DNA of 14,080 bases. Origin: a virus. Taxonomy: Duplodnaviria > Heunggongvirae > Uroviricota > Caudoviricetes. Location of the stretch: positions 1 through 14,080 of IMG/VR virus record IMGVR_UViG_2541047854_000001; one strand, given 5' to 3'. The notes beneath the pieces are model-generated. The model ran no database searches, was not told the DNA's origin, and was given only the letters and a program-made list of their open reading frames with translations. Made by a program: the position numbers and the translations under genes. The first letter of the stretch is position 1. Every line of letters begins with the position of its first letter. Shown here one piece after another: positions 1 through 14,080 of the stretch.

Positions 1-201
1 TTACCCATTGGCGCGGCTTAAGAGCTTGTTTTTGAATTCACAATGGTCACGATATAACCATCTTGCGCGCCCGTGGATAACTTTGGCTTTTGGCAAGTCG
101 CCGGACTTAATCCGGTCATAGATGAAGGTTTTACCAAAGCCAGTATCAGCCATGATGAATTTCAAATCAACCAGTGAATCAGGCTGTAGTTCGTGTTGCA
201 T
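1..201 (-). CDS. torI: Prophage excisionase / recombination directionality factor TorI (AlpA/Xis-family winged-helix protein), 66 aa
   Basis: Complete 66-aa ORF, ATG at 201-199 and TAA at 3-1. The translation MQHELQPDSLVDLKFIMADTGFGKTFIYDRIKSG... matches my recollection of K-12 TorI in length and sequence. It sits at the int-distal end of the argW prophage as in K-12. Confidence 0.85.
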   Translation of the reverse strand: MQHELQPDSLVDLKFIMADTGFGKTFIYDRIKSGDLPKAKVIHGRARWLYRDHCEFKNKLLSRANG

Positions 202-220
202 GAGTGCTATCTCCGAATAG

Positions 221-236
221 GGAATCGAACCTGCAA
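221..236. repeat. 16-nt att core (ggaatcgaacctgcaa), exact copy of a segment inside argW at 13012..13027
   Basis: Exact 16/16 identity with the T-arm region of the tRNA at the other end of the element; both flanks diverge immediately. Direct repeat in the same orientation, about 12.8 kb apart. Confidence 0.7.
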
Positions 237-237
237 A

Positions 238-333
238 TCAGGCAATAAAAATACGCTCTATGACGGCGATGGTAGATCAGGATATTTTAAGAAACTGACA
301 GGCCTCATCGAGTGTGAGGCTGTATGGCTCCAT
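238..333 (-). pseudogene. ypdJ: Truncated AlpA/Xis-like excisionase remnant (ypdJ-like): MEPYSLTLDEACQFLKIS, in-frame TGA, frame ends at the att core
   Basis: ATG at 333-331 overlaps the yfdT stop (TAATG). The translation has an AlpA-type HTH N-terminus, is interrupted by TGA at 279-277, continues STIAVIERIFIA and ends at 240-238 just before the att core. Position matches the K-12 ypdJ excisionase fragment between yfdT and torI. Confidence 0.45.
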
Positions 334-638
334 TATTTCACCTCTTGCTGTGACATTGTTGAAAAATGGATATCAGCTCGTTGCTGCCAGACGATCCAAC
401 CGAGAGTCATATCCCATGCCATGTATTCGTTATCGCCGTTTTTTGCTCTCCGACGATCTACTAAGTCACCGAAACGCTTTTCCATGAATAATTCATAAGC
501 TTCGCGTTCATCTGGTTCTACTTCCAGAGATAGGAGTGCGATTTCATAAGCACGGCGCTCAATATCGTCTCGCACGTCAAGGCTGTTGATACGCTCTTTA
601 ATTTCTTTAATCAGTTCTTTGTCGGTAAAAGTGGTCAT
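333..638 (-). CDS. yfdT: CPS-53 prophage protein YfdT, uncharacterized, 101 aa
   Basis: 101-aa ORF with ATG start; the 1-nt stop/start overlap with yfdS (TAATG) suggests translational coupling. Length and gene order match K-12 yfdT. Confidence 0.75.
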   Translation of the reverse strand: MTTFTDKELIKEIKERINSLDVRDDIERRAYEIALLSLEVEPDEREAYELFMEKRFGDLVDRRRAKNGDNEYMAWDMTLGWIVWQQRADIHFSTMSQQEVK

Positions 639-1000
639 TATGCTCCAGCCTCCGGTGCTTTTGGCATTACTGCCCAGTGAGTGATATTGACGTTTTCAAG
701 GTCCCCGACCTGAAATGTCCACTGCCATTCTCCGGTTTCTTTTTGTCCCCAGGTGTACCAGAGAGAACGCCAGCCAATTAGCCAGCCTTCTCCGTTAGCA
801 TCGAATAACAAAACACTTTCATTTGCTGGTGGCAGTTCAGTTGACACTGGTATTACTTTGTTTTCCTGTGCTGCACATTTAGCTTCAAGCGCATCGAATT
901 TACGCACCAGGTATTCAGCATCTGTTTCATTTACTTTCAGATCTCGCGGTACACATCTCCCACGAAGAAACCCTTCCATTTCGAAAACATTCATGCGCAT
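638..1000 (-). CDS. yfdS: CPS-53 prophage protein YfdS, uncharacterized, 120 aa
   Basis: 120-aa ORF with ATG at 1000-998, overlapping the 3' end of yfdR by 10 nt. Length and order match K-12 yfdS. An alternative ATG at 994 overlaps the yfdR stop. Confidence 0.75.
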   Translation of the reverse strand: MRMNVFEMEGFLRGRCVPRDLKVNETDAEYLVRKFDALEAKCAAQENKVIPVSTELPPANESVLLFDANGEGWLIGWRSLWYTWGQKETGEWQWTFQVGDLENVNITHWAVMPKAPEAGA

Positions 1001-1527
1001 TTGCGTAACTCCGATAACTCGTTAAAGCGTTCCATAAACATCCCGTAGGCATGGCCCGGTGCCAGTGGAATCACGTTGAACATCTCTGTTGCCGGGATAC
1101 CTTCCAGTACAGGCCAGAAAGAGCCATCATCAAGCCCGAGATCGCGGCGTTCGGTTGCCAGCATGATGAGATCGGCATATTTCACGGGCGTACTCATAAC
1201 TGGGGGTAACCCGTATTTCTCACGGATTACGGCGTCTATTTTTTCTTCCATTTGTTTATAGTCAGGAAGAAGGCGTTTCAGTGGTGCGGGAATGTCCTGG
1301 CAATACGCTTCTGTTGCATCATGCATTAACGCTTCAAAAGCAAATTCCTGCGGCACCAGCTGGCTGCAAAGAACCGCATGTTGGGCGACGCTGTAGAAGT
1401 GCGAAAGATGACCGGCAAAGCGACAGATATTTGAAAGGGAAACCGCGATATCGTTAATATCGATGTCGTCTTTATTTATCCTGTCATAATAAAAATGCTT
1501 CCCGGAAAAAGTTTTAATAAATGACAT
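991..1527 (-). CDS. yfdR: HD-domain phosphohydrolase (5'-deoxynucleotidase-like) YfdR, 178 aa
   Basis: ATG at 1527-1525 gives 178 aa starting MSFIKTFSGKHFYYDR, preceded by GGGGAA. The track ORF begins 9 codons upstream at a GTG. An H...HD metal-binding signature (SVAQHAV ... LMHDATE) is visible. Length matches K-12 YfdR. Confidence 0.8.
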   Translation of the reverse strand: MSFIKTFSGKHFYYDRINKDDIDINDIAVSLSNICRFAGHLSHFYSVAQHAVLCSQLVPQEFAFEALMHDATEAYCQDIPAPLKRLLPDYKQMEEKIDAVIREKYGLPPVMSTPVKYADLIMLATERRDLGLDDGSFWPVLEGIPATEMFNVIPLAPGHAYGMFMERFNELSELRKCA

Positions 1528-1620
1528 TTTGTTCCCCACGTATATGCGCTGCACCGCGCTGAATTCTGGTAAAAAGAATCCCTCACCATCCGGCGATTAT
1601 TGAGTAAATTACGTTTCCAT

Positions 1621-1642
1621 AAATGCCCCCGCAGGGGCATTT
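1621..1642. other. Intergenic stem-loop between yfdQ and yfdR (9-bp perfect stem aaatgcccc / ggggcattt, 4-nt loop), no U-tract
   Basis: Perfect inverted repeat read directly from the sequence. With no following T-run it looks more like a processing or attenuation hairpin than a strong terminator. Confidence 0.3.
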
Positions 1643-1654
1643 GCAGTAATGAAA

Positions 1655-2479
1655 TCAGGCGGTGAAAGTACCAATAAAGGTTTCTACTTTGCTGTCCTTG
1701 AATTTCTCAACAAGCAGATCACGAAATTCGTTAGCCATTTCTTCCTGCACCGCCTCCAGCTGAATAATGCGCAGAACCAGTACAGGACGATCGCCAGTGA
1801 TAATACTGAGGCGTAATTTAAACGGACGTTCTTTCAGACCTTCAAACGGAACGCATTTAAATTCAAATGCCACTGGCATAATGTCTTTGGTCTTCGCTTC
1901 GACAGACTCCATCAGGGAGCGTTTGCCGCTGAAGTCATTATCTTCAAAATCAGCGGTCTGGTTTGCTTCAATCGTGATTTTACGGACAGCCGCAGCCGCT
2001 TTTGTTGCCTGAATAGCGTCACCATTAGCATCAAAGCCCACAAGATAGTCTGCCCAGTCTTCAATCCATTCTGCTAGTGACTTCTGGGAGTTACGCTCGC
2101 CGTTAATAGACAACAGAGCAGAGAACGGTGCTGTCTTTTTCAGTTTGAGTGTGGCGGTGTTATCTGCGTGACCTGGTTCATCAATAGTACCCAGGTTAAG
2201 CACACTGACGGCTCGCATATTATCGGCATCGATAAAGCAGCGGGTGCCTTCATCTGCAAGATCTTTAGAATAACGGGTAAAGTCATCGATGCTGGCAGTG
2301 GAAAGCGCACCACGGAAACGGAAGCGATTTAAATTAAATTTTTCCAGATCATGAATGCGGAAATTCTCAGGCAATGCCACAGCATCGGCACCAATCTTAC
2401 TGATAATTTCATTAACACCCTGAGCAGAAATAAGGGCATGGATTTGATTAATTGCGGTTGCGTCTAAGTTCTGAGACAT
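1655..2479 (-). CDS. yfdQ: DUF2303-family prophage protein YfdQ, 274 aa
   Basis: 274-aa ORF with ATG at 2479 and a GAGGA Shine-Dalgarno about 7 nt upstream. Length, order and the sequence as I recall it match K-12 YfdQ. Confidence 0.85.
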
Positions 2480-2544
2480 AATAAGTCCTCACTATATAAA
2501 GATATTCAGTGATGAGATAAATAATCGGTTAATTAAGAACGATA

Positions 2545-2907
2545 TTAATGACCTGCTGCGCGGAGTTTTCCGTCAGGTTCACCGGCAAGAGTCAGTAATT
2601 GTCCCTGGTCTTCCTGCAGACTAGTCAGGCGACCACCGCGATTGACATACATTGGCGTTTCGGTGGTGTCTTCTTCGGAAATTTTCCCGCGGTTAGTCGG
2701 GCGAACATATGAGAGTTTGTGTTTGATTTTCACACGGTTCTCATCAAATGGTTCGATTTCCAGGTTGAGTGAGACCTTACCTTTGGTTTTCGTGTTCATC
2801 ACACCGGAAGCGACTTCACTGAGAACTGCGCCGATTTTGGTTTCAAATACGCCGCCGTCCAGCTCCCCAATAAATGCCTGCACATCAGTACTGCGTTCGC
2901 TAGCCAT
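2545..2907 (-). CDS. yfdP: CPS-53 prophage protein YfdP, uncharacterized, 120 aa
   Basis: Internal ATG at 2907-2905 with a strong AGGAG SD (taggagcagaaaaATG) gives 120 aa starting MASERSTDVQ. The track's 226-aa version runs upstream through the GC-rich structured block and is probably an artefact. Confidence 0.75.
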   Translation of the reverse strand: MASERSTDVQAFIGELDGGVFETKIGAVLSEVASGVMNTKTKGKVSLNLEIEPFDENRVKIKHKLSYVRPTNRGKISEEDTTETPMYVNRGGRLTSLQEDQGQLLTLAGEPDGKLRAAGH

Positions 2908-2924
2908 TTTTCTGCTCCTAATCA

Positions 2925-3300
2925 TATCGACCCTGCAAGGTCGGTTGGTTTCTCCACAAAACAGAGAAGAACACCTGCGGTGGCAGCCGCCCGGATGGAT
3001 TGGGTTATGAGCCCGTCGTCCGGTGATGTTCTTCTCTGTTTTGTAAAAAGAGCGGTACCAGCCGGAAGCAAGTGTACAAACTGGTACCGCGAGGACTACA
3101 CACAGCATAAAGTTGTGGTGCCGGGTGCCTCCCGGTGCCTGGCGAAGGTTGCACACCAGGCGGGTGGGTATCCACAGAAGGTCGACTGTCAGCCTCAACC
3201 TTAACCCGCGTGCGCTGAGCCGCATTCACCACAACGCTAAGGATTCTCTCTGGTTGAAAATACTTAGCTGTTATGTGCCTGTCTTTTCACCACTTCAGGC
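2925..3300. other. GC-rich structured noncoding block: candidate ncRNA or cis-acting RNA/DNA element
   Basis: No credible ORF; only overlapping Pro/Arg/Gly-rich ORFs on both strands. Perfect inverted repeats: 18 bp (2956-2973 with 3027-3044, plus 2 bp after a 3-nt bulge), 10 bp (3052-3061 with 3081-3090), 9 bp long-range (3112-3120 with 3227-3235) enclosing three local hairpins. Confidence 0.3.
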
Positions 3301-3345
3301 TCGGTGGTATCTTGGTGTTTTCATATAGCCAAGAAGGAAATAGTT

Positions 3346-3537
3346 ATGACCAAAGAAGAAAAAATTCTTTATTTATTCCAACTATCGGTTAAGACTCACA
3401 CTGCATATCAGACTGCTGCCATGACATCAGATAAAAATTACAGTACGTCAGAAAACCCGATAGACGACATAAGCAAGCTTTACGATAAGTTCGAAGCACT
3501 ACTCGATAAAAAGTTTGCTGAGGCTGGGCTTGAGTGA
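3346..3537 (+). CDS. Hypothetical small protein, 63 aa (MTKEEKILYLFQLSVKTHTAYQ...)
   Basis: ATG at 3346 preceded by AAGGAAA with 5-nt spacing; hydrophilic, no recognisable motif. The track ORF starts 14 codons upstream at a weaker site. Confidence 0.4.
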   Translation: MTKEEKILYLFQLSVKTHTAYQTAAMTSDKNYSTSENPIDDISKLYDKFEALLDKKFAEAGLE

Positions 3538-3705
3538 TTGTTGAATAATCGACAAAACCCAACTTAAATTTTCGTCAGTGGGCTCGATGCCATGTGCGGT
3601 GAGCTCACTTTTCAAAACTCCAAGCAATTCAGAGCTGATTTTCAATATATCTGCTTGATTTCTAACTATTCCCACTTTTTCCTCCCTTGGTCTACGCGCG
3701 GTCAT
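3499..3705 (-). CDS. Hypothetical small protein, 68 aa (or 58 aa from the internal GTG); Arg-rich N-terminus
   Basis: ATG at 3705; inside the ORF, AGGGAGG followed by AAAAA and GTG gives a better initiation site at codon 11. Its 3' end overlaps the convergent 63-aa ORF by 39 nt. First gene left of the repressor/OL region. Confidence 0.3.
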   Translation of the reverse strand: MTARRPREEKVGIVRNQADILKISSELLGVLKSELTAHGIEPTDENLSWVLSIIQQSLKPSLSKLFIE

Positions 3706-3889
3706 GTTTTACGCCCAAACGACTTCACAGTTATTGTTTAAAATCTGGACTTTCATTTCATACACCTGCTTTAACATGAGTGCCTGGTGGCACAACATGA
3801 CTCAACGAATCATCCTGGACTTCATATGCCCCAGGCGGCTACTTCGTGGGCGTCCTGCCTGTTCGTTATCTTTGATACAAAATCTAACT

Positions 3890-3962
3890 TAACTTAGTTA
3901 TTATAGCAAGAGAAAACACCAAACTTTTCTTAGTTCGGTGCCTTAGTTAGAGAAGAGAGGTC
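3890..3962 (-). promoter_or_regulatory. Putative OL/PL-like region: three CTTAGTT half-site repeats and an extended -10 like element downstream of the repressor gene
   Basis: CTTAGTT at 3893-3899, 3929-3935 and 3942-3948, the same motif as in the cI/cro intergenic region. On the minus strand TGcTATAAA lies around 3897-3906. Confidence 0.35.
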
Positions 3963-4589
3963 TTAGAGTTCGTATTGAACTCCTTTGACTACACCAATGA
4001 TAAGGCAATTACCATTGATAGGGATGTTGGGATACCGAGGATTTAATGGCACTAAAAACTTTTGAGGGCCATCGATGACTAATTTTTTTACTGTAGCTTC
4101 GTTTGTTCCATCAAGTCGAGCGATGACTATTTTTCCATGACGAGGTTCTGCATCTGGATCTACAATCACTGTTGCGCCTTCTGGTATTGTTGGGAGGCCA
4201 TTAGGGTTAGTCATGGAGTCACCTTTAACCTCTAATGCAAATGAGTTATCACCAATCTTTAATGATGTATCTACCCACTTGTCCACTTCACTAAACACTT
4301 CTGCTGCCCTGCACTCAGTAAACTGCCCAGCCTGAACCCACGATATTACAGGAACTCTGCGCATGTTTGTGACGAGTTTGCCTTCAAACTCAGCACCATA
4401 AAGAATGTAATCTATTGACGTATTGAAGAACTTCGCTAATTTCGAAAGTGCCTCCCCACCAGGGGTATTGATGTCTTTCTCCCAGTACCCCACAGCAACG
4501 TCGCTTACTCCACAAAATTTACCCAATTCTTTCTGGGACGTTCCGGTAACTCTTCTCAGAGCTTTTATACGCTGACCAACCGTTTCCAT
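3963..4589 (-). CDS. Phage CI-like repressor: XRE-type HTH N-domain plus LexA/S24 peptidase C-domain, 208 aa
   Basis: N-terminal HTH (QKELGKFCGVSDVAVGYWEKD), Ala-Gly candidate cleavage site (VQAGQF), catalytic GDSM serine motif and a downstream Lys (VKKL). Divergent from a Cro-like gene. Confidence 0.85.
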   Translation of the reverse strand: METVGQRIKALRRVTGTSQKELGKFCGVSDVAVGYWEKDINTPGGEALSKLAKFFNTSIDYILYGAEFEGKLVTNMRRVPVISWVQAGQFTECRAAEVFSEVDKWVDTSLKIGDNSFALEVKGDSMTNPNGLPTIPEGATVIVDPDAEPRHGKIVIARLDGTNEATVKKLVIDGPQKFLVPLNPRYPNIPINGNCLIIGVVKGVQYEL

Positions 4590-4686
4590 AGGAGCACCAT
4601 TTCTTGAATTGCTAAGTAATCTTAGTTTTTATTGACCAAAGATAGATTTGTAATTAGCATCTAATAAAACTTAGTTTGGAGGGCGT
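4590..4686. promoter_or_regulatory. Divergent cI/cro operator-promoter region (OR-like)
   Basis: Inverted repeat CTAAG-taat-CTTAG at 4612-4625, CTTAGTT at 4621-4627 and CTTAG at 4670-4674. Candidate rightward promoter: -35 TTGACC at 4632-4637, 17-bp spacer, -10 TAGCAT at 4655-4660; GGAGGG SD at 4678-4683 before the cro ATG at 4687. Confidence 0.5.
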
Positions 4687-4887
4687 ATGACAACTGACGA
4701 TATCGAAAGCTACTTCGGCAGTATTGAGAAAGTTGCTGCTTTTTTCGGCATAACAACTGAAGCCGTTTATCAGTGGCGAAACCGTCCGGGCCAGTTAATT
4801 CCAAAAGGACGTGCAGCAGAAGCTGCATATAGAACTTGCGGACGGTTGCCATTTAAACCTGAGCTTTATGAAAAATCTAATGGATAA
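4687..4887 (+). CDS. Cro-like / YdaS-family small HTH regulator, 66 aa
   Basis: ATG at 4687 with GGAGGG SD; HTH-like segment IEKVAAFFGITTEAVYQWRN. Divergent from the cI-like repressor. Confidence 0.75.
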   Translation: MTTDDIESYFGSIEKVAAFFGITTEAVYQWRNRPGQLIPKGRAAEAAYRTCGRLPFKPELYEKSNG

Positions 4888-5476
4888 ATCGATTAACAGA
4901 AACCACAGAACGATGAGGCTAACCGTGGGTAAGCATCACTGGAAAGTAGAAAAACAGCCTGAGTGGTACGTGAAAGCTGTCAGAAAAACTATCGCAGCGT
5001 TGCCGGGTGGTTACGCTGAAGCAGCTGACTGGCTGGATGTAACAGAAAACGCATTATTTAACCGTCTTCGTGCCGATGGCGATCAGATTTTCCCGCTGGG
5101 ATGGGCAATGATTTTGCAACGTGCTGGTGGAACTCACTTCATTGCTGACGCTGTGGCGCAGTCTGCAAATGGCGTCTTTGTGTCTCTTCCTGACGTCGAG
5201 GATGTGGACAACGCCGATATTAACCAGCGCCTGCTGGAAGTCATTGAACAGATTGGCAGTTATTCCAGACAGATTCGTTCGGCAATCGAAGACGGTGTGG
5301 TGGAACCGCATGAGAAGACAGCAATTAACGACGAGCTGTATCTCTCAATTTCGAAGCTGCAGGAGCATGCAGCACTGGTCTACAAAATCTTTTGCATTTC
5401 AGAAAGTAATGACGCCCGCGAGTGTGCAGCTCCGGGCGCCGTGGCGTGTCGTGACTGTGGAGAAACTAACGCATGA
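4868..5476 (+). CDS. Putative CII/YdaT-like early regulator, possibly chimeric at its C-terminus; start uncertain
   Basis: Immediately follows and overlaps cro in another frame. In-frame starts: GTG 4811 (track), ATG 4868, ATG 4880, and GTG 4925 with a GAGG SD. The Cys-rich C-terminus overlaps the next gene. Product assignment is by position after a YdaS-like Cro. Confidence 0.45.
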
Positions 5477-6044
5477 ACAGTTTAACAACACACTATCGGC
5501 ACTGTTGCCGCCCGGTCCTGCATGGTCAGCCAGCGATCCGGCGATTGCCGGTGCGGCACCTTCATTAACCCGCGTTCATCAGCGTGCGGATGCCCTGATG
5601 CGGGAGCTGGATCCGCGCACCACCACTGAACTGATAAACCGCTGGGAGCGTCTGTGCGGTCTGCCGGATGAATGTATTCCCGCAGGGACACAGACCCTTC
5701 GCCAGCGTCAGCAACGGCTGGATGCGAAGGTTAATCTGGCGGGCGGCATCAATGAGGATTTTTACCTTGCACAGCTTGCTGCCCTGGGCAGACCAGACGC
5801 CACTATCACGCGATACGATAAAAGCACGTTCACCTGCTCATCGGCCTGTACTGACGCGGTGAATGCGCCGGAATGGCGGTATTACTGGCAGATCAACATG
5901 CCAGCCGCCACCAACACCACCTGGATGACATGTGGCGATCCCTGTGATTCCGCGCTGCGTATCTGGGGTGACACCGTTGTCGAGTGTGTGCTTAACAAAC
6001 TCTGCCCGTCGCATACCTACGTAATTTTTAAATATCCGGAGTAA
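5457..6044 (+). CDS. Phage tail protein, Mu gp48 / YmfQ-like (DUF2313 family); start uncertain (GTG 5457, GTG 5451 or ATG 5409)
   Basis: N-terminal [11 protein letters not shown]-type motif and a C-terminal Cys cluster (CGDPCDSAL); sits directly upstream of the tail fiber gene as in Mu-like and e14-like tail modules. The first 96 codons of the track ORF overlap the preceding gene. Confidence 0.6.
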
Positions 6045-6047
6045 TCC

Positions 6048-7061
6048 ATGCATCGTATAGACACGAAAACCGCGCAGAAGGATAAGTTCGGCGCGGGTAA
6101 GAACGGTTTTACCCGTGGTAACCCCCAGACTGGCACGCCTGCCACCGATCTGGATGATGACTACTTTGACATGTTGCAGGAAGAACTTTGTAGCGTTGTT
6201 GAGGCATCCGGTGCCAGTCTGGAGAAGGCGCGGCACGACCAGCTGCTTACCGCGCTTCGTGCGCTGCTGTTAAGCCGCAAGAATCCGTTTGGTGATATCA
6301 AATCGGATGGCACGGTGAAAACGGCTCTCGAAAACCTTGGTTTATCAGACGTTTTACATAAGGGAAATTTTGGTGTCGGGAGTAGGCTGCAAGGTAGTGC
6401 AGCCGGGAATAGCCATGTCGGTGGATTCATGTATGAACCATATCAGGCGAACAATCTTTACCCGCTAAGTGTGGCTTTAATGCAGGCAGCAGGCCCGACA
6501 TCGACAGAATGGGCGCAGCTGGCTGTTTCATATGGTGGGGCATTCAGAGCTTTCCTTGGGCGACAGACTTATAATGGAAATCCTGAAATCAGTGAGTTGT
6601 ACCATGACCAGCGTAAGCCGTCTGCGTCGGATGTTGGTGCCCAACCTCTGAATGCAACTCTCACCACTCTTAGTGGAAAAGATGCGGCAGGATTAAGGAG
6701 CGTCCTAGGGCTTGGAACAACAGCCACAAGAAACGTAGGTACGGGAGCGTCACAAATACCTGATATGAGTTCGTTTTTAAGCGGATCTACAGCATCAGCT
6801 TTTTGGTACAAACTTCCTGGTGGCATGGTGGTGATGGGGGGTAATGCATCTGGAATCGCCTCTGGAACTGCAGGTAATGAGGTCTTCTTCCCAATACCAT
6901 TCCCAAATGCTTGCTCAAGCGTTGTCGTGACATTAGTCAGCAACGGGTTATATGCCGACACAGTCTCGTTTAATACATATATCCCTGGAACTGACCGTTT
7001 TAACATTTATACGAATACAAGCGGCACGTATACTATTTACTACATGGCTTTTGGGAGTTGA
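6048..7061 (+). CDS. Phage side tail fiber protein, 337 aa
   Basis: ATG at 6048 with GGAG SD 6 nt upstream. N-terminus [47 protein letters not shown] is the conserved tail-fiber N-terminal domain; Gly/Ser/Thr-rich distal part. Confidence 0.8.
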
Positions 7062-7062
7062 T

Positions 7063-7479
7063 ATGAACAATTATGTATGGTCTGCATCACATGTTTCATT
7101 TTTTCCAAAATCCATGCTGCCAGATTATGAATCTGCTGGATGGAATCTTTCCGATGTGGTGGATGTTGTTGATGACATTTTTCAAACATACAGATCAATG
7201 CCACCAGAAGGTAAAATTCTTGGGGTTGTTGATGGGATGCCTGAATGGATTGACAAGCCGCCAGTGCCAAATAGCGTGTTGCTTTCAGACGAACTTGCGC
7301 GGCTTGCATCAGAATATAAAAATGACAGAGTTCAATTGAATGACGCATACGTTGCGGCAATGGTAAGCGATAGTCCATCAGAGCAAACTAAGCAGCAGGC
7401 GGTAAGGGATCAAATTATTCAAAGAAAATCTCAGTACACAGCAGACATAGCTGCAGCAAAATTAAAATATCCCATTTAA
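7063..7479 (+). CDS. Tail fiber assembly (chaperone) protein, 138 aa
   Basis: ATG at 7063, 1 nt after the tail fiber stop, with GGGAG SD. The N-terminal YVWSAS...FFP...PEGK...W.D.PP pattern is typical of Tfa proteins. The track ORF starts inside the fiber gene in the same frame. Confidence 0.7.
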   Translation: MNNYVWSASHVSFFPKSMLPDYESAGWNLSDVVDVVDDIFQTYRSMPPEGKILGVVDGMPEWIDKPPVPNSVLLSDELARLASEYKNDRVQLNDAYVAAMVSDSPSEQTKQQAVRDQIIQRKSQYTADIAAAKLKYPI

Positions 7480-7489
7480 GGTGGACATC

Positions 7490-7654
7490 ATGGAAACACA
7501 ATCAAACGAAGAACAAAAACAGAGCCAGCAACAGCAGGATTCTACCGTAAAATTCTGTCCGATATGTGGCTCAACAATGCATCAGCAAGATTATCTGAAT
7601 GGGAAATGGTGGTTTTGTGATGATGAAGAATGCGGTTTTTTTGAGCCCGTCTAA
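7490..7654 (+). CDS. Small zinc-ribbon protein, 54 aa (CPICG ... FCDDEEC), absent from the ORF track
   Basis: ATG at 7490 preceded by AAGGTGGA; Gln-rich N-terminus then CxxC-x16-C-x4-C; TAA at 7652-7654 followed by a terminator hairpin. Confidence 0.5.
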   Translation: METQSNEEQKQSQQQQDSTVKFCPICGSTMHQQDYLNGKWWFCDDEECGFFEPV

Positions 7655-7674
7655 AGTATTTGTTTGCAGGAATT

Positions 7675-7705
7675 AAAGCCCTCTCTGGAGGGCTCATATT
7701 TATTT
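7675..7705. terminator. Bidirectional intrinsic terminator between the convergent zinc-ribbon ORF and acyltransferase gene
   Basis: 7-bp GC-rich stem agccctc / gagggct (7677-7683 with 7688-7694), 4-nt loop, T-rich tract after it on the plus strand and a moderately T-rich tract on the minus strand. Confidence 0.5.
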
Positions 7706-8488
7706 TGCGTATTTCTTTCTAAACCCAAGAAATGGCTTTTCAATCAACTCAAAACATATCTTAGAAAAGATAAGAATTGCAGGTAGTAAAATCAAAAAAT
7801 TAATGACAGCATTAACATTATCATTGTCGATAAACCTCGGAATTCCAAATGTTTTATGGAATGAGTAAAGAACCACACCATGCAATATGTATTCAGAAAA
7901 GCTTACCTCACCAAGTTTAGATAATCCATTATCTATAATGGCAGGTGTTTTTATGCTTGACGATAAGTAAGCAAATACAAAAATACCCCACATGCAAGCC
8001 TCCAGATATGATAAAGAAGTTACATATGGTGTTGGAATGTACCATAAACCCTCAGATCTAAGTGTTAAAAGAGAAAAGAAGACAATTGCAGAACTGGCGA
8101 TGATAAAGATCGGATTAGCGAATTTATCCTTATGGTTTATATATAGATATCCAAACACCATCCCAATTAATAGCTGGTCAAATCGACCAAGCATTGTTAA
8201 GTAGTAATAATGATTGTTCAGATATGAATCCGACCCTAATTCCCCACCATAGATTGCAACGATCATGGTTCTCCAGGCAAGCCAAAAAAGAGACAGATAC
8301 ACAATATACTTCACACCATATCTGTTAAGAAAAAGAGCTAGGAAAGGAAATATTAAGTAAAATTGAAATTCTACTGCTATAGTCCACGTTTGCCCGAAAT
8401 GAGCCAGCAACGGTGATGTTTGCAAATTCGAGAAAAGGAACAAGGATAAAGCATCAGAAAATGTGGCAGTACCTCTAGATAGAGACAT
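7700..8488 (-). CDS. Acyltransferase family 3 (O-antigen O-acetyltransferase-like) membrane protein, N-terminally truncated relative to the family; possible pseudogene
   Basis: TWTIAVEFQFYLIFPF matches the family's SVE.QFY motif, but only about 34 residues after the first ATG. An in-frame R-x-x-R segment (FNRFIRIFPLL) lies upstream of that ATG, and the frame stays open up to the gtrS stop codon. AT-rich and polytopic. Confidence 0.65.
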   Translation of the reverse strand: MSLSRGTATFSDALSLFLFSNLQTSPLLAHFGQTWTIAVEFQFYLIFPFLALFLNRYGVKYIVYLSLFWLAWRTMIVAIYGGELGSDSYLNNHYYYLTMLGRFDQLLIGMVFGYLYINHKDKFANPIFIIASSAIVFFSLLTLRSEGLWYIPTPYVTSLSYLEACMWGIFVFAYLSSSIKTPAIIDNGLSKLGEVSFSEYILHGVVLYSFHKTFGIPRFIDNDNVNAVINFLILLPAILIFSKICFELIEKPFLGFRKKYAK

Positions 8489-8565
8489 GGCGGTAATCCA
8501 TGCTCCAGAAAGGAGTGGGAAGATGCGAATAAATCTATTGAAGATAAAAGACTTATAAGAAATTG

Positions 8566-8595
8566 AAAATCCTCCGGCATAGCCGGAGGATTTTT
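8566..8595 (-). terminator. Strong intrinsic terminator hairpin immediately downstream of the GtrS-like gene
   Basis: 13-bp stem (aaaatcctccggc / gccggaggatttt) with a 3-nt loop, T-runs on both sides, 2 nt after the gtrS stop. Confidence 0.55.
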
Positions 8596-8596
8596 G

Positions 8597-10261
8597 TTAA
8601 AGGGTAAAGTCTATTTGATAATATCTTTTAGAAGGCGTTGTTGAGTCAAATGCTCCAAATGAAGCGTTTTTGATATACCATGATGGCATGTAGTTCAATT
8701 TCGCATAAAGGAACACCCTATCATTTACATAAGCGTAATTTGGCTCGAAATCAAAATTGTGATAATTATCAAATATATCCATCACATGGAAAAGGAAACG
8801 TTGATTAGGCTGTTCAGATAGCCTTTCTTCATGCGTTATTTCAAATAAAAACACAGTCTCCAAACAATATTTATCAGTATACATATAAATACCTTTCAAG
8901 CCTTTCTTGGTAAACATGTTACTGCTGTCGTGAATTTTATATTTATTATTATCTATAACAGAATAATCAAATATTGTGCCATATCCTATAATGTTTTTTT
9001 TATTGTAGTATTTGGACATGGCATCAAAGTTTGTCCATGTGTCAAACATATATGTTGAACTTGGCATTGCTTTGAAATAAAACTCAGGTATTAATGTTTC
9101 TTTTTCATTACTATCATTTTCTTGTATTAATTTAATTCGAATTGAGTTTTGTAAATTAATCGAATGATAAGCGGATATTACCGATATAGACTCAACAATA
9201 AAAGTCAAGAACATCATAGAGTAAAAAACTCTAATAAAATTAGTGCTTAAAATATCATTACGAATAAAGTTTAATGAATATGCGATAGACATTAAACAAA
9301 ATACAAATGATGGTGTTTTCGCTCTATCAGGGAATGCTGGAGAAAACACCATAACAAAAGAGCAGCCTAAAGAAGCCAATAAAAGCACTATGGATATTAA
9401 AAAATCAGTAGGCTTGCCATCTTTTGTAATTAGATTCGATTTTTGAATGCGTATACATAATAAAATTGATACTATAGCTATACTATAAGCTAGTTTAGAT
9501 GATTTAAAGACTTCGGGCATTCTATGAAAAAAATGCAAGTCAATTTTTTCTATTAAAGAAAGTGAGCGCCAGTCTGCGAATGATGGATCCATCATCCTCG
9601 ACTCATTTCCTGGTGTTGCCAATAAAAAAACAGCACCTGTTATTACTAAAATAAAAATAGGCAAAAGCCTTAAATCATTCTTTTTTATTATTACTAGTAA
9701 GTATAAATAACAAAGTAAGATTATACCAATCAAAGTTAAGCTTGCATTTTCATTTGTACATCCTGCTAGTAATGATGCAGGATAAACAACAGGATTGATT
9801 TTTTTATTTTGTATGTAACCAATTACTTCTTTAGCTACAAAAACATATAAAACGGAAGTCCATAAATAGTTTGCACTACCAACAATCCATAAATTTGATT
9901 GTCCAAAGCTTGGATGAGAAAGAAAAAAAATAATCGAAATAAAAGATAATATATACCAGCTTTTTACGGTGTTGTCAAATTTTGAAATTAAATGCAAAAG
10001 CAAGAAAACACCAAATGTTTGAATTGCTGCTATAACAATTTTATTATTCACCAACAACAATGTTGGACTTATAAAATCAGCAACAATTCTTCCACTCCAT
10101 GTTAGATAATGATGCAAGTGCGCATCAAAATTGAATCCAATAATTGCATAGCCATAATCATCTGACTGGAGAGGTGTGTAGTAATTCAAAGTGTAAACTA
10201 CAGCAAGAAATGTTGCGCATACAAAAAAATAAATATATTTATTTAATTTTGGATATTTCAC
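8597..10261 (-). CDS. Type-specific O-antigen glucosyltransferase (GtrS/GtrC-like), 554 aa, polytopic with a soluble C-terminal domain
   Basis: Third gene of a gtrA-gtrB operon; GTG start overlaps the gtrB stop (GTGA). Very AT-rich with many hydrophobic segments. It is 554 aa against 443 aa for K-12 YfdI as I recall it, so a different serotype-specific allele. Confidence 0.7.
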
Positions 10262-11181
10262 TTATCACCTCTGTGCTTTAAGATGTATTTTGGTCTTTTC
10301 TTGGTCTCTATATATATTCTACCAATATATTCACCTAAAAAACCTATACCGATTAACTGAACACCGCCAAGGAATAATATCGAAACAAGTAAAGAAGGAT
10401 ACCCCCTTACAGGATTACCAAAGGCGATTGTATCAATGATCATCCATGCACCATAAAAGAATGAAAAACTAGCCACGACAAGTCCGATATAGGTCCACAT
10501 TCTTAAAGGGAATGTTGAAAAGCTGGTAATGCCCTCAAGCGCTAGGTTCCATAGTTTCCAACCATTAAATTTTGTGCTACCAGCGACACGTTCTGCGCGA
10601 ACATACTCAACAACATCGGTGCGACCACCTACCCAACTCAATACACCTTTCATGAAAAGATTCCGCTCAGGTAGCAGCTTAATGTTCTCAACCACCTCTC
10701 GTGACATAAGACGGAAGTCACCGACATTCTCTTCGATCTGAGGGGTGCTGATTTTGTTATGTAGTTTATAGAACCACTCAGCCGTCTTACGCTTAAGGCG
10801 CCCATCAGTAGAGCGATCAGCGCGCTTGGCAAGCACCATGTCCGCGCCTGCCTGCCACTTCTCAATCAGATGAGGTATAACTTCAATCGGATCTTGTAAG
10901 TCGACATCGATCGGTATAATCGCTTCGCCGGTTGCGTGATCAAGTCCGGCGAATAGAGCAGGTTCTTTACCAAAGTTGCGTGTAAATGACAATGGAACAA
11001 CTAGCGGGTCTGAAATAGCAAGAGCGTTAATAATTGATTCCGTGGCATCTTTGCTTCCGTCATTTATGAAAATAATTTCTACTTCATATGGCTTCAACTC
11101 TTCGAATTCACGTACCGTTTTATAAAAAATTGGTATCGTATCTTCTTCATTGAAGACAGGAACGACCAGAGATATCTTCAT
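10258..11181 (-). CDS. gtrB: Bactoprenol glucosyltransferase GtrB (GT2 family), 307 aa
   Basis: [14 protein letters not shown]-terminus and DVDLQD (DxD) motif with two C-terminal TM segments; ATG overlaps the gtrA stop (ATGA). Corresponds to K-12 yfdH. Confidence 0.9.
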
Positions 11182-11540
11182 TTTGCATCCCTAAATACAA
11201 TGAACTTTGAATAGACGAAACCGCACACCAGGCTGATGGCGGAAAAGGTAATAAGTGTGATAAACGGAGGAAGGGAGCATTTGTCAGCAGCCCAACCTAC
11301 AGTCGCACTCAACATTCCCATGAATCCAACGTATAACATGTAGCGCATCGTTGTAGTTGATGCTTTGAATGTGAATCTTGCATTCGCGAAGAAGCTAAAA
11401 CTCACAGCCACAACGAACCCGGCTAAGTTTGCAAGGGTTTGATTGGTATGCGCGGCGTAGATACATACACCAAAAACCACCCAGTGTATAAGTGTGTTCA
11501 GTACACCAATCGAGGTATACCTCGCGAATAGCTTTAACAT
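11178..11540 (-). CDS. gtrA: Bactoprenol-linked glucose translocase (flippase) GtrA, 120 aa
   Basis: 120-aa hydrophobic GtrA-family protein directly upstream of and coupled to gtrB. Corresponds to K-12 yfdG. Confidence 0.85.
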
Positions 11541-11622
11541 TTCTTCTATCAGCTAATAATCAAAGGCATGAAGTCTATCATCCAAGTCTCAATTGATCGA
11601 GACTTGCTGTAATCACTGAAAC

Positions 11623-11658
11623 ACACAAAGCCTTGCACTGGATTGCAAGGCTTTGTGT
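11623..11658 (-). terminator. 15-bp perfect hairpin downstream of intS (acacaaagccttgca / tgcaaggctttgtgt, 6-nt loop); weak U-tract
   Basis: Perfect inverted repeat 20 nt after the intS stop, lying between intS and the gtr operon. Candidate terminator or insulator. Confidence 0.4.
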
Positions 11659-11678
11659 CATCCGATAGTTAAGGTGGA

Positions 11679-12836
11679 TCACTCCACCTTTTCATCAAGC
11701 CAGTCCGCCCACCACTGCATCATTTCTCTTCGCTTGTCGAGATACTGAGCATGGTTGTAAATTCCACGTACAGATCCGCCATTGGCATGTGCCAGTTGCA
11801 TTTCAATAGCGTCAGCAGGCCATTCGTGCTCGTTCATAATCGTGCTGAATTCATGCCTGAATCCGTGACCGCTTTCCAGACCTTCATAGCCGATTTGTTT
11901 GATCACAAGCAGTACCGCATTCTCGCAGATTGGCTTCTTCTTATCGTTGCGCCCGGCAAAAACAAACTCTGATACTGGCTTGGTGATTGAGCTTAGCGTA
12001 GTGAGAAGTTCAACTACCTGGTCTGATATAGGAACAACATGAATCTTGCGGCCCTTCATCACACTGGCGTCGATAGTGATAATCCTGTTTTCAAAATCGA
12101 CGTTCTTCCATTGCATGGAACGAAGCTCTTTCGTTCTTAGGGCTGTGTAGCGTAAAACTTTGGTCGCAATGAGCGATACGATACTTCCTGAAAATGTTGC
12201 AAGTGCTTTGTTGAATTCCGGGATCTGGTCGGCAGGTAAAAACGGGAAGTTCTTCTTGCGGTATCCCTTCATGGCGTCAGCAAGGTCAGGTGCCGGGTTA
12301 TATTTAGCCCTACCAGTGACAATAGCGTAACGGAAAACCTCGCCGCATCTTCTGCGGGCTTTGTTGGCTCGCTCCATTGCACCGCGATCTTCAAATCTGC
12401 GGATTACTTCCAGCAGTTGCATCGGCTCAATATCCTGAATTTCAAGGCTGCCGATGATAGGTAAAATGTCGTCATCAAACATTTTTGCAAGTTCAGTTGC
12501 ATAGCCTACTGACCAGACTTGCTTCTTGTGCTCGTACCATTCCTTGTATATTGCACTAAAGGAATTGTTGTTAGACGAAGCCTTTTTCGCCTTTACCGGA
12601 TCGATACCAACCGAGATGTCTTTCCTCGCAGTCCATGCCTTATCCCTTGCCTCCTGCAAAGTCATTAGCGGATATTTTCCTACGGTCAGGATTTTCTCCT
12701 TACCGTCAATCTTGTAGCGAAGCTGCCATACCTTTTTCCCTGACACAGGGACATAAAGGTACAGGCCATTACCATCGAGAAGGCGGTATGGTTTTTCTTT
12801 CGGCTTTGCTGCTTCAATCTGCTTAACGGTGAGCAT
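11679..12836 (-). CDS. intS: Prophage integrase IntS (P4-type tyrosine recombinase), 385 aa
   Basis: Adjacent to and co-oriented with argW. ATG at 12836 gives 385 aa starting MLTVKQIEAAKPKEKPYRLLDGNGLYLYV. The track ORF starts 12 codons upstream at GTG 12872. C-terminal catalytic region contains HGFRH and a tyrosine. Confidence 0.9.
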   Translation of the reverse strand: MLTVKQIEAAKPKEKPYRLLDGNGLYLYVPVSGKKVWQLRYKIDGKEKILTVGKYPLMTLQEARDKAWTARKDISVGIDPVKAKKASSNNNSFSAIYKEWYEHKKQVWSVGYATELAKMFDDDILPIIGSLEIQDIEPMQLLEVIRRFEDRGAMERANKARRRCGEVFRYAIVTGRAKYNPAPDLADAMKGYRKKNFPFLPADQIPEFNKALATFSGSIVSLIATKVLRYTALRTKELRSMQWKNVDFENRIITIDASVMKGRKIHVVPISDQVVELLTTLSSITKPVSEFVFAGRNDKKKPICENAVLLVIKQIGYEGLESGHGFRHEFSTIMNEHEWPADAIEMQLAHANGGSVRGIYNHAQYLDKRREMMQWWADWLDEKVE

Positions 12837-12997
12837 GGGTAAAAATCCGGTGGGTAAAATTATTTTATCCACTTTTTACCCGTCATGGAGTGCGGCTGTC
12901 AACGATCTGAAGCGAACCATGACAAACTGTGAATCTACGGAAGGCTTGATATTTAGGGGGTTTTGCGGACTGGTACGGATGGGAGCGAACTGATAAA

Positions 12998-13072
12998 TGG
13001 TGTCCCCTGCAGGAATCGAACCTGCAATTAGCCCTTAGGAGGGGCTCGTTATATCCATTTAACTAAGAGGAC
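12998..13072 (-). tRNA. argW: tRNA-Arg (anticodon CCU), 75 nt, encoded CCA
   Basis: Reverse complement GTCCTCTTAGTTAAATGGATATAACGAGCCCCTCCTAAGGGCTAATTGCAGGTTCGATTCCTGCAGGGGACACCA folds as a cloverleaf: 7-bp acceptor stem with one G-U pair, anticodon stem AGCCC/GGGCT with loop CTCCTAA, T-arm GCAGG/CCTGC. Confidence 0.9.
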
Positions 13073-13125
13073 AATGCGGCATGAGTATACCCGCTAATGG
13101 AGTGCGGGGTAAGTACGCTGCCGCT
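13073..13125 (-). promoter_or_regulatory. Putative argW promoter (-10 TATACT about 12 nt upstream of the mature tRNA 5' end)
   Basis: On the minus strand TATACT lies at 13088-13083, followed by a GC-rich discriminator-like catgccgc. The -35 is weak. Confidence 0.3.
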
Positions 13126-13147
13126 CGATTGCTTAAACCCTCGCCAT

Positions 13148-14080
13148 TTATGCCGGGTTTTTATAATTTTTCTTAATGTTTTCCGCACGTTCTGCTTTTT
13201 GGCGTGCTTCTGCTTTACGCTTATTGCTCATGTCGTTACGAATCTGTGCATGACTCATTAACGCGAAGATAAAGGTGCCGCCGCAGATGTTCCCCGCTAA
13301 AGTAGGTAGTGCGAAGGGCCAGATGAAATCGCTCCAGTGCAGCGTACCGTTAAACACCAGATAGAGGATTTCAACAGAACCGACCACGATATGGGTGGTG
13401 TCACCCAGGGCAATAAGCCAGGTCATCAATATAATCACCACAATCTTTGCCGCACCCGCTGCAGGAAACATCCAAACCATAGTGGCGATCAGCCAGCCGG
13501 AAATGATCGCGTTGGCAAACATCTCGCTGGGGGTGTTCTTCATCACATCCATGCCGATTTTGACAAATGCATCGCGAGTTTCTTCATTGAAGATAGGCAT
13601 ATATTCAAATGCCCACGCCGCAATACCTGTCCCGAGAATATTACCCAGCAGCACGACGCCCCATAACCGTATAAGTAAGCCGACGTTGCTCATTGTCGGT
13701 TTTTGCATGACGGGTAGTACCGCAGTCACGGTATTTTCGGTAAATAATTGCTGGCGGGCCATAATGACGATAATAAAACCAAAGGTATAACCGAGATTCT
13801 CCAGCAAGAAGCTGCCCGGCACACCTTCCAGTTCGACATGAAATATCCCTTTTGCCAGTAACGAAGCGCCCATCGACAGACCCGCCGCAATGGCTGACCA
13901 CAGTAGCGCCATTGCGTCGCGTTCCAGCTCTTTTTCACCATCCTGGCGGATATGCTCATGAATTGCCATCGCCCGGGAGGGGAGTCGGTCTTCATCTATT
14001 TCTATTTTTTTGCCGCGCTCTTTTTCTTCGCTCTCAACTTCAATTTCGTCGCTGTGTTGATCAATTTTGTCGTTGTCCAT
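13148..14080 (-). CDS. yfdC: Formate/nitrite transporter (FNT) family inner-membrane protein YfdC, 310 aa
   Basis: ATG at 14080-14078, exactly at the window edge. Acidic N-terminal tail followed by multiple TM segments. Length and position next to argW match K-12 yfdC. Confidence 0.85.
   Translation of the reverse strand: MDNDKIDQHSDEIEVESEEKERGKKIEIDEDRLPSRAMAIHEHIRQDGEKELERDAMALLWSAIAAGLSMGASLLAKGIFHVELEGVPGSFLLENLGYTFGFIIVIMARQQLFTENTVTAVLPVMQKPTMSNVGLLIRLWGVVLLGNILGTGIAAWAFEYMPIFNEETRDAFVKIGMDVMKNTPSEMFANAIISGWLIATMVWMFPAAGAAKIVVIILMTWLIALGDTTHIVVGSVEILYLVFNGTLHWSDFIWPFALPTLAGNICGGTFIFALMSHAQIRNDMSNKRKAEARQKAERAENIKKNYKNPA

Follow-up and report, generated by a model that had tools for sequence, protein, structure and literature searches.

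A predicted SOS-responsive immunity cassette of P22 design in a CPS-53/KplE1-like prophage remnant at argW

Introduction

The repressor of phage P22 recognizes 18-bp sites, contacting positions 2-7 and 12-17 and leaving uncontacted the central 4 bp, where A/T is preferred; a T-to-C change at position 3 abolishes its specific binding (PMC4267663). The CPS-53/KplE1 prophage of Escherichia coli K-12 is described as having no repressor and no CI module and as not being SOS-inducible (Panis et al., PMC2951348). Expression of torI alone suffices for KplE1 excision, and control of this recombination directionality factor (RDF) gene has been argued to constitute the excision switch (PMC2951348). Here we analyze a 14,080-nucleotide stretch of viral DNA (Caudoviricetes; positions 1 to 14,080 of IMG/VR record IMGVR_UViG_2541047854_000001; hereafter, the window), and in it a cI/C2-type repressor gene at 3963-4589 on the minus strand, together with the DNA on either side of it. 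We consider it very likely that the region constitutes a complete lambdoid immunity cassette of P22 immC design (OL/PL, repressor, PRM/OR/PR, cro and a cII-like gene), located in a gutted CPS-53/KplE1-like prophage at argW and supplying it with a repressor-controlled, SOS-responsive switch. The design is P22-like and the predicted specificity is distinct; the operator assignment is new in detail and conventional in kind.

Putative operators and promoters of the cassette

A preliminary description of this DNA, made from the sequence without database searches, had pointed to a CTTAGTT motif repeated around the repressor gene. Exact copies of CTTAGTT begin at 3893, 3929, 3942, 4621 and 4670 on the plus strand and at 7386 and 13061 on the minus strand, 7 copies against 1.52 expected, and none of 200 shuffles of the window reached 7. 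All five plus-strand copies lie within the two intergenic stretches, of 83 bp and 97 bp, that flank the repressor gene (180 bp in all; GC 0.32-0.34). Dinucleotide-preserving shuffles of these flanks yielded a mean of 0.13 copies, with 0 of 20,000 reaching 5, so that the repetition is non-random; when any 7-mer was allowed, five copies were reached in 15 of 5,000 shuffles.

The repeated unit is nonetheless not the 7-mer itself. When spacings of 0 to 10 bp were compared, a C[T/A]AA core was found exactly 4 nucleotides (N4) upstream of four of the five copies and at none of the other spacings (P ~7e-7 after correction for all 11). A free-standing 7-mer repeat is thereby ruled out, four copies being halves of 18-bp dyads with an invariant CTAAx-N4-CTTAG core and the fifth an orphan. 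The dyads have the consensus AACTAAG-N4-CTTAGTT, with C invariant at position 3 and an A/T-rich centre. The bare 5-mer CTTAG is not enriched in the window (21 copies versus 20.4 expected), and a loose scan for 18-bp dyads (at least 10 of 14 positions matching) gave 8 matches versus 7.7 expected. The operator signal resides in the exact half-site, its partner at N4 and the conservation of both, and not in a generic dyad.

We infer that these dyads are operators bound by the repressor. To the left of the repressor gene, OL1 (3882-3899, ATCTAAC-TTAA-CTTAGTT) lies inside the spacer and -10 of the putative PL promoter, and OL2 (3918-3935, ACCAAAC-TTTT-CTTAGTT) is 36 bp from OL1; no convincing OL3 was found. 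To the right, the OR3-like site (4610-4627, TGCTAAG-TAAT-CTTAGTT) carries the putative PRM -10, TAAGAT (4624 to 4619, minus strand), and the OR1-like site (4659-4676, ATCTAAT-AAAA-CTTAGTT) covers the predicted PR start and the final 2 bp of the PR -10. Midway between them, a weak candidate OR2 (4635-4652, ACCAAAG-ATAG-ATTTGTA; 9/14 match) overlaps the PR -35 with its left half. The preliminary description gave an inverted pair at 4612-4625, which holds for the 5-mers CTAAG and CTTAG and fails for the 7-mer, since the left half, TGCTAAG, matches at 5 of 7 positions. The plus-strand copy at 3942-3948 has no C[TA]AA at N4 and is replaced by TTTTGGTT in the mEp460_4F5 group of relatives and by TTAAGAG in the relative L029; we therefore do not regard it as a conserved operator or accept it as a half-site. 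The ACTTAG-like copies at 3262-3267 and 3962-3966 that had been counted with the motif are at chance level and, since the 5-mer is not enriched, carry no weight as operators; the latter shares bases with the stop codon of the repressor gene and is not kept in relatives.

A consensus scan predicted PR at 4632-4660 on the plus strand, with a -35 of TTGACC (4632-4637), a 17-bp spacer and a -10 of TAGCAT (4655-4660). Starts are predicted near 4667 (plus strand) for PR and near 4612 (minus strand) for PRM. The -35, already noted in the preliminary description, is invariant in all relatives, and the -10 reads TAGCAT, TAACAT or TAATAT. The match to P22 PL geometry led us to place PL at 3881-3909 on the minus strand, with TTGCTA (3909 to 3904) as the probable -35, a 17-bp spacer, TAGATT (3886 to 3881) as the probable -10 and a start near 3874; the -35 reads TTGCCA or TTGACC in relatives. 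As a separate observation, the minus strand at 3908 to 3900 reads TGCTATAAT, a perfect extended -10 (TGnTATAAT) overlapping the putative PL -35. It is created by an A at 3905, a position that is G in most relatives; this polymorphism suggests that the extended -10 may be neutral.

Conservation was assessed over 21 loci whose repressors are 89.9-100% identical to that of the window. The core of OL1, ATCTAAC-TTAA-CTTAG, is invariant in 21 of 21, including those at 90% identity (L029 ends the site in CT), and OL2 is conserved with a variable A/T centre. The left half of the putative OR2 is also conserved and reads CTAAG in the mEp460_4F5 group. In phage LLS and L029, the relatives at 90% identity, no alignment with the window is possible over the cI leader and the outer flanks, yet every spacing is retained, as are the TTGACC -35 and the cores (CTAAG/CTAAT/CTAAC and CTTAG). 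The N4 centres vary among relatives but stay A/T-rich (TAAT/CAAT, AAAA/CAAA, TTTT/TATT/TAAA), and this pattern of conservation is matched by the contact pattern of the P22 repressor.

The layout of P22 immC is reproduced closely, with divergent repressor and cro genes, three 18-bp OR sites and recognizable PR and PRM elements. In the annotated P22 sequence the sites read AGTTAAG-TCAT-CTTAAAT (OR3), ACTAAAG-ATTC-CTTTAGT (OR2) and ATTTAAG-TGTT-CTTTAAT (OR1); like those of the window they are 18-bp dyads (7+4+7) with an inner TAAG and an A/T-rich centre. Their centres are 25 and 23 bp apart, compared with 25 and 24 bp in the window. The PR -35, TTGACT in P22 and TTGACC in the window, overlaps the first 3 bp of OR2 in each, the PR -10 overlaps the first 2 bp of OR1 in both, and a PRM -10 of TAAGAT lies inside OR3 in both. 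The second cluster agrees as well, OL1 and OL2 bracketing the -35 and overlapping the -10 as in annotated P22 PL; the two sites are 35 bp apart in P22 and 36 bp apart in the window, and in both the PL -10 starts 1 nt outside OL1 and the -35 lies 4 nt beyond it. The half-sites, however, differ at positions 2 and 3 (AACTAAG in the window, ATTTAAG in P22). All window sites have C at position 3, where the P22 specificity sequence ATTTAAG-N4-CTTAAAT has T, and since C at this position abolishes P22 repressor binding, the window immunity and P22 would be expected to be heteroimmune.

That the CTTAGTT copies are functionless chance occurrences in AT-rich intergenic DNA is extremely improbable: the unenriched 5-mer, the loose dyad scan and the random appearance of the copies at 3942, 3262 and 3962 speak for it, but shuffling and conservation have already refuted it, partner half-sites occur at the N4 spacing only, the cores are kept where the flanks diverge, and the geometry equals that of the P22 operators base for base.

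The repressor and the divergent regulatory genes

The repressor is a protein of 208 amino acids with a helix-turn-helix and an S24 autopeptidase domain, detected in a profile search of the window open reading frames (ORFs) as Pfam HTH_3 (1e-10) and Peptidase_S24 (9e-28). The latter match, to PF00717, reaches 96.7 bits (cut-off 23.3) and covers 115 of 116 profile positions. The carboxy-terminal domain aligned with lambda cI structures at 7.5e-28 and the amino terminus with the P22 C2 DNA-binding domain at 1.7e-9; identity to P22 C2 is 47% over 205 amino acids. The motifs VQ-A87-G88-QF, GD-S125-M and TV-K168-KL correspond to VQAGMF, GNSM and TFKKL of lambda cI, with A87-G88, S125 and K168 aligned to the scissile bond A111-G112 and the catalytic S149 and K192. 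The cleavage site, serine and lysine also align with those of P22 C2. The S24 signature is thus complete, as the preliminary description had stated; domain and residues together place the protein among the self-cleaving repressors of the LexA/lambda-cI type, and cleavage would be expected to be stimulated by RecA*.

The recognition helix (S29-E37) reads VSDVAVGYWE. It retains V31, the equivalent of P22 V33, which is a "valine cleft" residue (PMC2995052), and differs from P22 at D30, G34 and Y35 (N32, S36 and Q37 in P22). The repressor is 100% identical to cI of 689R6, 99.5% to that of phage Kati, 98.6% to that of mEp460_4F5 and 89.9% to that of LLS.

The divergent gene at 4687-4887 (plus strand) encodes a 66-amino-acid Cro that matches Pfam P22_Cro (4.4e-11) and is 30% identical to P22 Cro (E = 4e-9). 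It had been described as Cro/YdaS-like, of which the Cro part stands; the YdaS match is 19.5 bits against a cut-off of 30. The next gene, at 4925-5476 on the same strand, encodes YmfL, a CII-like regulator of the CP76 family (183 amino acids; PF06892, 1.2e-13; phrog_101, CII-like). CII-like it therefore is, but the suggested resemblance to YdaT found no match to that family. The ymfL start is likely to be the GTG at 4925 rather than 4811, and the same start is used in RefSeq relatives. In P22 the CII-type gene is C1 in place of YmfL/CP76.

The e14 prophage of K-12 presents the same layout, ymfK-ymfT-ymfL. Its YmfL is 95% identical to that of the window and the carboxy-terminal domain of its repressor 42% identical, and e14 has the same structured RNA in its PL leader downstream of the repressor gene (see below). 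The amino-terminal domain of the e14 repressor (YmfK) and its Cro (YmfT), in contrast, are unrelated to those of the window. The two would therefore differ in immunity specificity, and identity with e14 immunity is ruled out, only YmfL and the repressor carboxy-terminal domain being related.

A gutted prophage at argW

The window belongs to the CPS-53/KplE1 family, as judged by integration at argW, the IntS/TorI module and the 16-nt attachment (att) core. The tRNA-Arg(CCT) gene argW is at 12998-13072, and the core, CTGCAGGGGACACCAT (12997-13012, minus strand), lies at its 3' end; the core sequence is taken from PMC2951348. The integrase gene intS (11679-12836, minus strand) encodes a protein 99% identical to K-12 IntS over 385 amino acids. 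The excisionase/RDF gene, torI (1-201, minus strand), encodes a protein with 100% identity to K-12 TorI.

BLAST homology to K-12 CPS-53/KplE1 covers 1-2926 (torI to yfdP, 96.7%), a 234-bp piece of yfdL and 10276-14080, so that the two share the argW site, the yfdP-yfdT block (96.7%), gtrAB and the att core. Apart from the yfdL piece, K-12 lacks window positions 2927-6109 and with them cI, cro, ymfL and the operators; it has yfdO, yfdN and yfdM instead. The statement in the preliminary description that K-12 CPS-53 has no such repressor module agrees with this BLAST result and with PMC2951348. The window is thus a natural counterpart of the K-12 KplE1 excision model, which has IntS and TorI and no CI module; since a CI module is present here, the rule that excision follows control of the RDF gene becomes testable under native SOS control.

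Most of the prophage has been lost. Identity with an intact relative, the KSC1031 prophage, stops at 5495, and from 5494 onward the window matches the AF56 strain in its tail region. This changeover places a deletion from the end of ymfL to codon 12 of ymfQ, its joint at 5494-5495 marked by a 2-bp microhomology (TA), where the DNA after ymfL is fused to the baseplate gene ymfQ without its first 34 nt. The prophage has none of its replication, lysis and head genes left and has lost most of its tail genes; transcription from PR would now cover cro, ymfL and tail-fibre remnants.

These losses bring into question whether the cassette is itself a decaying relic, with inactive repressor and promoters, in a prophage that makes no SOS response and is silent for other reasons such as H-NS or Rho. 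The deletion, the persistence of K-12 CPS-53 with no repressor at all (PMC2951348) and the poor consensus matches of PRM and PL would accord with decay. We nevertheless think it improbable, because the repressor is identical to copies in intact prophages and nearly so to that of the isolated phage Kati, ten other loci have an identical OR region, and cI, cro and ymfL contain no frameshifts or stops.

The leftward operon and predicted excision

The order of genes leftward from PL is a 68-amino-acid ORF, yfdP, yfdQ, yfdR, yfdS-like, yfdT-like and, last in the operon, torI. From 3705 to 1 all ORFs with family matches are on the minus strand, except one at 3346-3537. This small opposite-strand gene, which belongs to phrog_2605 and is annotated in relatives, lies inside the leftward operon. 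The intact KSC1031 relative has its genes in this order too, as far as the excisionase.

If the cassette works as its design suggests, repressor dimers would bind the 18-bp dyads AACTAAG-N4-CTTAGTT without contacting their centres, shutting PL from OL1 and OL2 and PR from OR1 and OR2; the overlap of OR3 with PRM would provide autoregulation, and Cro would use the same sites with the reverse preference. After DNA damage, RecA* would promote cleavage of the repressor by its own S125 and K168 at A87-G88, and PL and PR would be derepressed. With torI at the end of the PL operon and IntS expressed independently, derepression of PL would be expected to provide TorI and to trigger excision and loss of the element. 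SOS-triggered excision via torI, a coupling that the preliminary description had also raised, is a reasonable and plausible prediction from gene order.

Several points weigh against our reading of the region as a complete SOS-responsive switch. The candidate OR2 matches poorly and owes its assignment mostly to the analogy with P22; the PL hexamers are weak (8/12) and were missed by the consensus scan. The prophage is defective, and the switch no longer governs a lytic cycle. The second att core, which bears on excision competence, lies outside the window, and Rho-dependent termination may act over the ~3.7 kb from PL to torI. Finally, operator binding, cleavage and transcription are predictions from sequence.

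There is an appreciable chance that the switch works and that induction is nevertheless uncoupled from excision, PL transcription stopping before torI or torI having its own signals, so that SOS would express only Cro, YmfL and nearby small genes. The distance of ~3.7 kb, with six ORFs intervening, fits such an uncoupling, as do the interruption of the operon by the opposite-strand gene at 3346-3537 and the lack of any N-like antiterminator recognizable by family searches among the window ORFs. Against it, no strong intrinsic terminator was found on the minus strand between PL and torI, the intact KSC1031 relative has the same order up to its excisionase, and the PL leader contains a conserved structured RNA at the position of HK022 putL.

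A conserved structured RNA in the PL leader

Directly downstream of PL, at 3804-3867 on the minus strand, is a conserved structured RNA of 64 nt with the sequence AACGAAC-AGGCAGGACGCCCACGAAGUAGCCGCC-UGGGGCAUAUGAAGUCCAGG-AUGA-UUCGUU. A closing stem, P1, pairs 3867-3862 with 3809-3804; a 22-nt core occupies 3859-3838, and a hairpin, P3, pairs 3835-3831 with 3818-3814. In 75 distinct copies, 94.9% of cells in P1 and P3 are paired, compared with 20-50% in slid controls, and 10 of the 14 pairs show compensatory double changes. RNAalifold recovered the same P1 and P3 independently, and the G-U pairs are consistent solely with the leftward-transcript strand. The core was found in more than 119 viral contigs and is nearly invariant, partly by construction, the search having been for exact matches. 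On the opposite strand, 3846-3862 (plus) resembles a terminator hairpin that is the antisense of the core. A plus-strand ORF at 3704-3892, with no family matches and an overlap with the leader RNA, was treated as spurious.

The RNA is present in at least 51 phage records with unrelated repressors, the carriers including SfII, SfV, SfIV, ST64B, phiNP, YeP1-3, Pantoea AH07, SPN3UB, Klebsiella phages, mEp237 and ZF40. In all six of the phage records examined for this, it lies just beyond the repressor-distal operators. A covariance model gave 90.6 bits for the window copy and found one copy per element, including one in K-12 e14 between ymfK and ymfJ (locus L008, 2109-2178, minus strand). The model detected no copy in HK022, P22 or LLS, and no second, putR-like copy in 20 kb of the intact relative. 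P22, for its part, has a gene-24 (N-like) protein and nutL, both of which the window lacks, the window having this different leader RNA after PL.

The nearest described parallel is the put element of HK022, whose putL copy lies downstream of PL (PMC9378689). In phages that lack an N homologue, putL and the leader RNA each begin no more than ~10 nt from the PL start; put and the leader RNA are both ~65-70 nt long, and they have the words RCGAAC and GGAUGA in common. They differ in architecture, the leader RNA consisting of a closing stem with two internal elements and HK022 put of two side-by-side stem-loops; the leader RNA is also single-copy in each genome, with no putR counterpart, unlike the HK022 arrangement. 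A local alignment with HK022 put yielded short shared words only, and the covariance model had no match in the HK022 immunity region at E <= 10, so that neither comparison showed homology to put. The leader RNA matches no Rfam family; the HK022 put region is likewise unmatched, so that this result is uninformative on the relationship between the two.

King et al. 2011 (J Bacteriol 193:5784) reportedly lists put-like sequences; for comparison with that list, the leader RNA reads GGCAGGACGCCCACGAAGUAGC. In the literature searched, which did not include King et al. 2011, neither the RNA core sequence nor any put-like element of SfV or ST64B turned up. The idea of a put element has been raised for LLS (PMC12315714).

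By analogy with put, our leading guess is that the RNA is a cis-acting antiterminator. A fuller version, which we hold to be doubtful and offer tentatively, would make it an undescribed factor-independent processive antiterminator, an analogue of HK022 put of a different structural class. It would then carry RNA polymerase from derepressed PL the ~3.7 kb to torI, in a variant whose repressor would make a gutted, O-antigen-modifying (gtr/acyltransferase) remnant SOS-excisable, and would represent the missing early antitermination device of lambdoid phages that lack N (SfII, SfV, SfIV, ST64B, phiNP, e14 and others). Shared by many such phages, a covarying PL-leader RNA may prove of more general interest than the switch.

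Distribution of the cassette

Of 5,426 complete E. coli genomes, 517 carry the OL-cI-OR cassette at a coverage of at least 80%, among them CFT073 and strains of ST131 and O145:H28; phages Kati, mEp460_4F5 and LLS have it too. The immunity module is therefore common in E. coli, occurring in about 1 in 10 sequenced genomes, and the operator sequence and promoter map given above provide a concrete description of this immunity type. A 2025 paper gives the operator specificity of the LLS repressor as unknown and mEp460_4F5 as unstudied (PMC12315714). LLS, mEp460_4F5, Kati and 689R6 have the same operators, PR and PL as the window, in addition to their closely similar repressors, and belong to the same immunity family. 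Their cassettes reside in full-length phages or prophages, whereas that of the window is in an argW remnant of ~13 kb. The LLS Cro has diverged, being 78% identical to that of mEp460_4F5 (PMC12315714). The 689R6 and 569R4 "phages" were predicted in silico as prophages in clinical isolates, and we have for this reason not used them as evidence of inducibility.

At least one other strain, G4/9, likewise carries the cassette in an argW remnant. The exact mosaic of the window was found in none of the 5,426 genomes, the best coverage being 61%; every segment of the window is common individually.

Other features of the window

On the minus strand at 3043-3265, the window matches the Rfam gammaproteobacterial small RNA STnc100 (49.1 bits; gathering threshold 47). 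The match overlaps the 5' part of the long yfdP-containing ORF at 2545-3225, a part that relatives have annotated as a frameshifted hypothetical gene. Between 7700 and 11540, also on the minus strand, is an O-antigen modification block that is unlike that of K-12 and 100% identical to strain AF56. It encodes GtrA and GtrB, followed by a 554-amino-acid DUF6056 protein in place of YfdI, together with a gene of the acyltransferase family.

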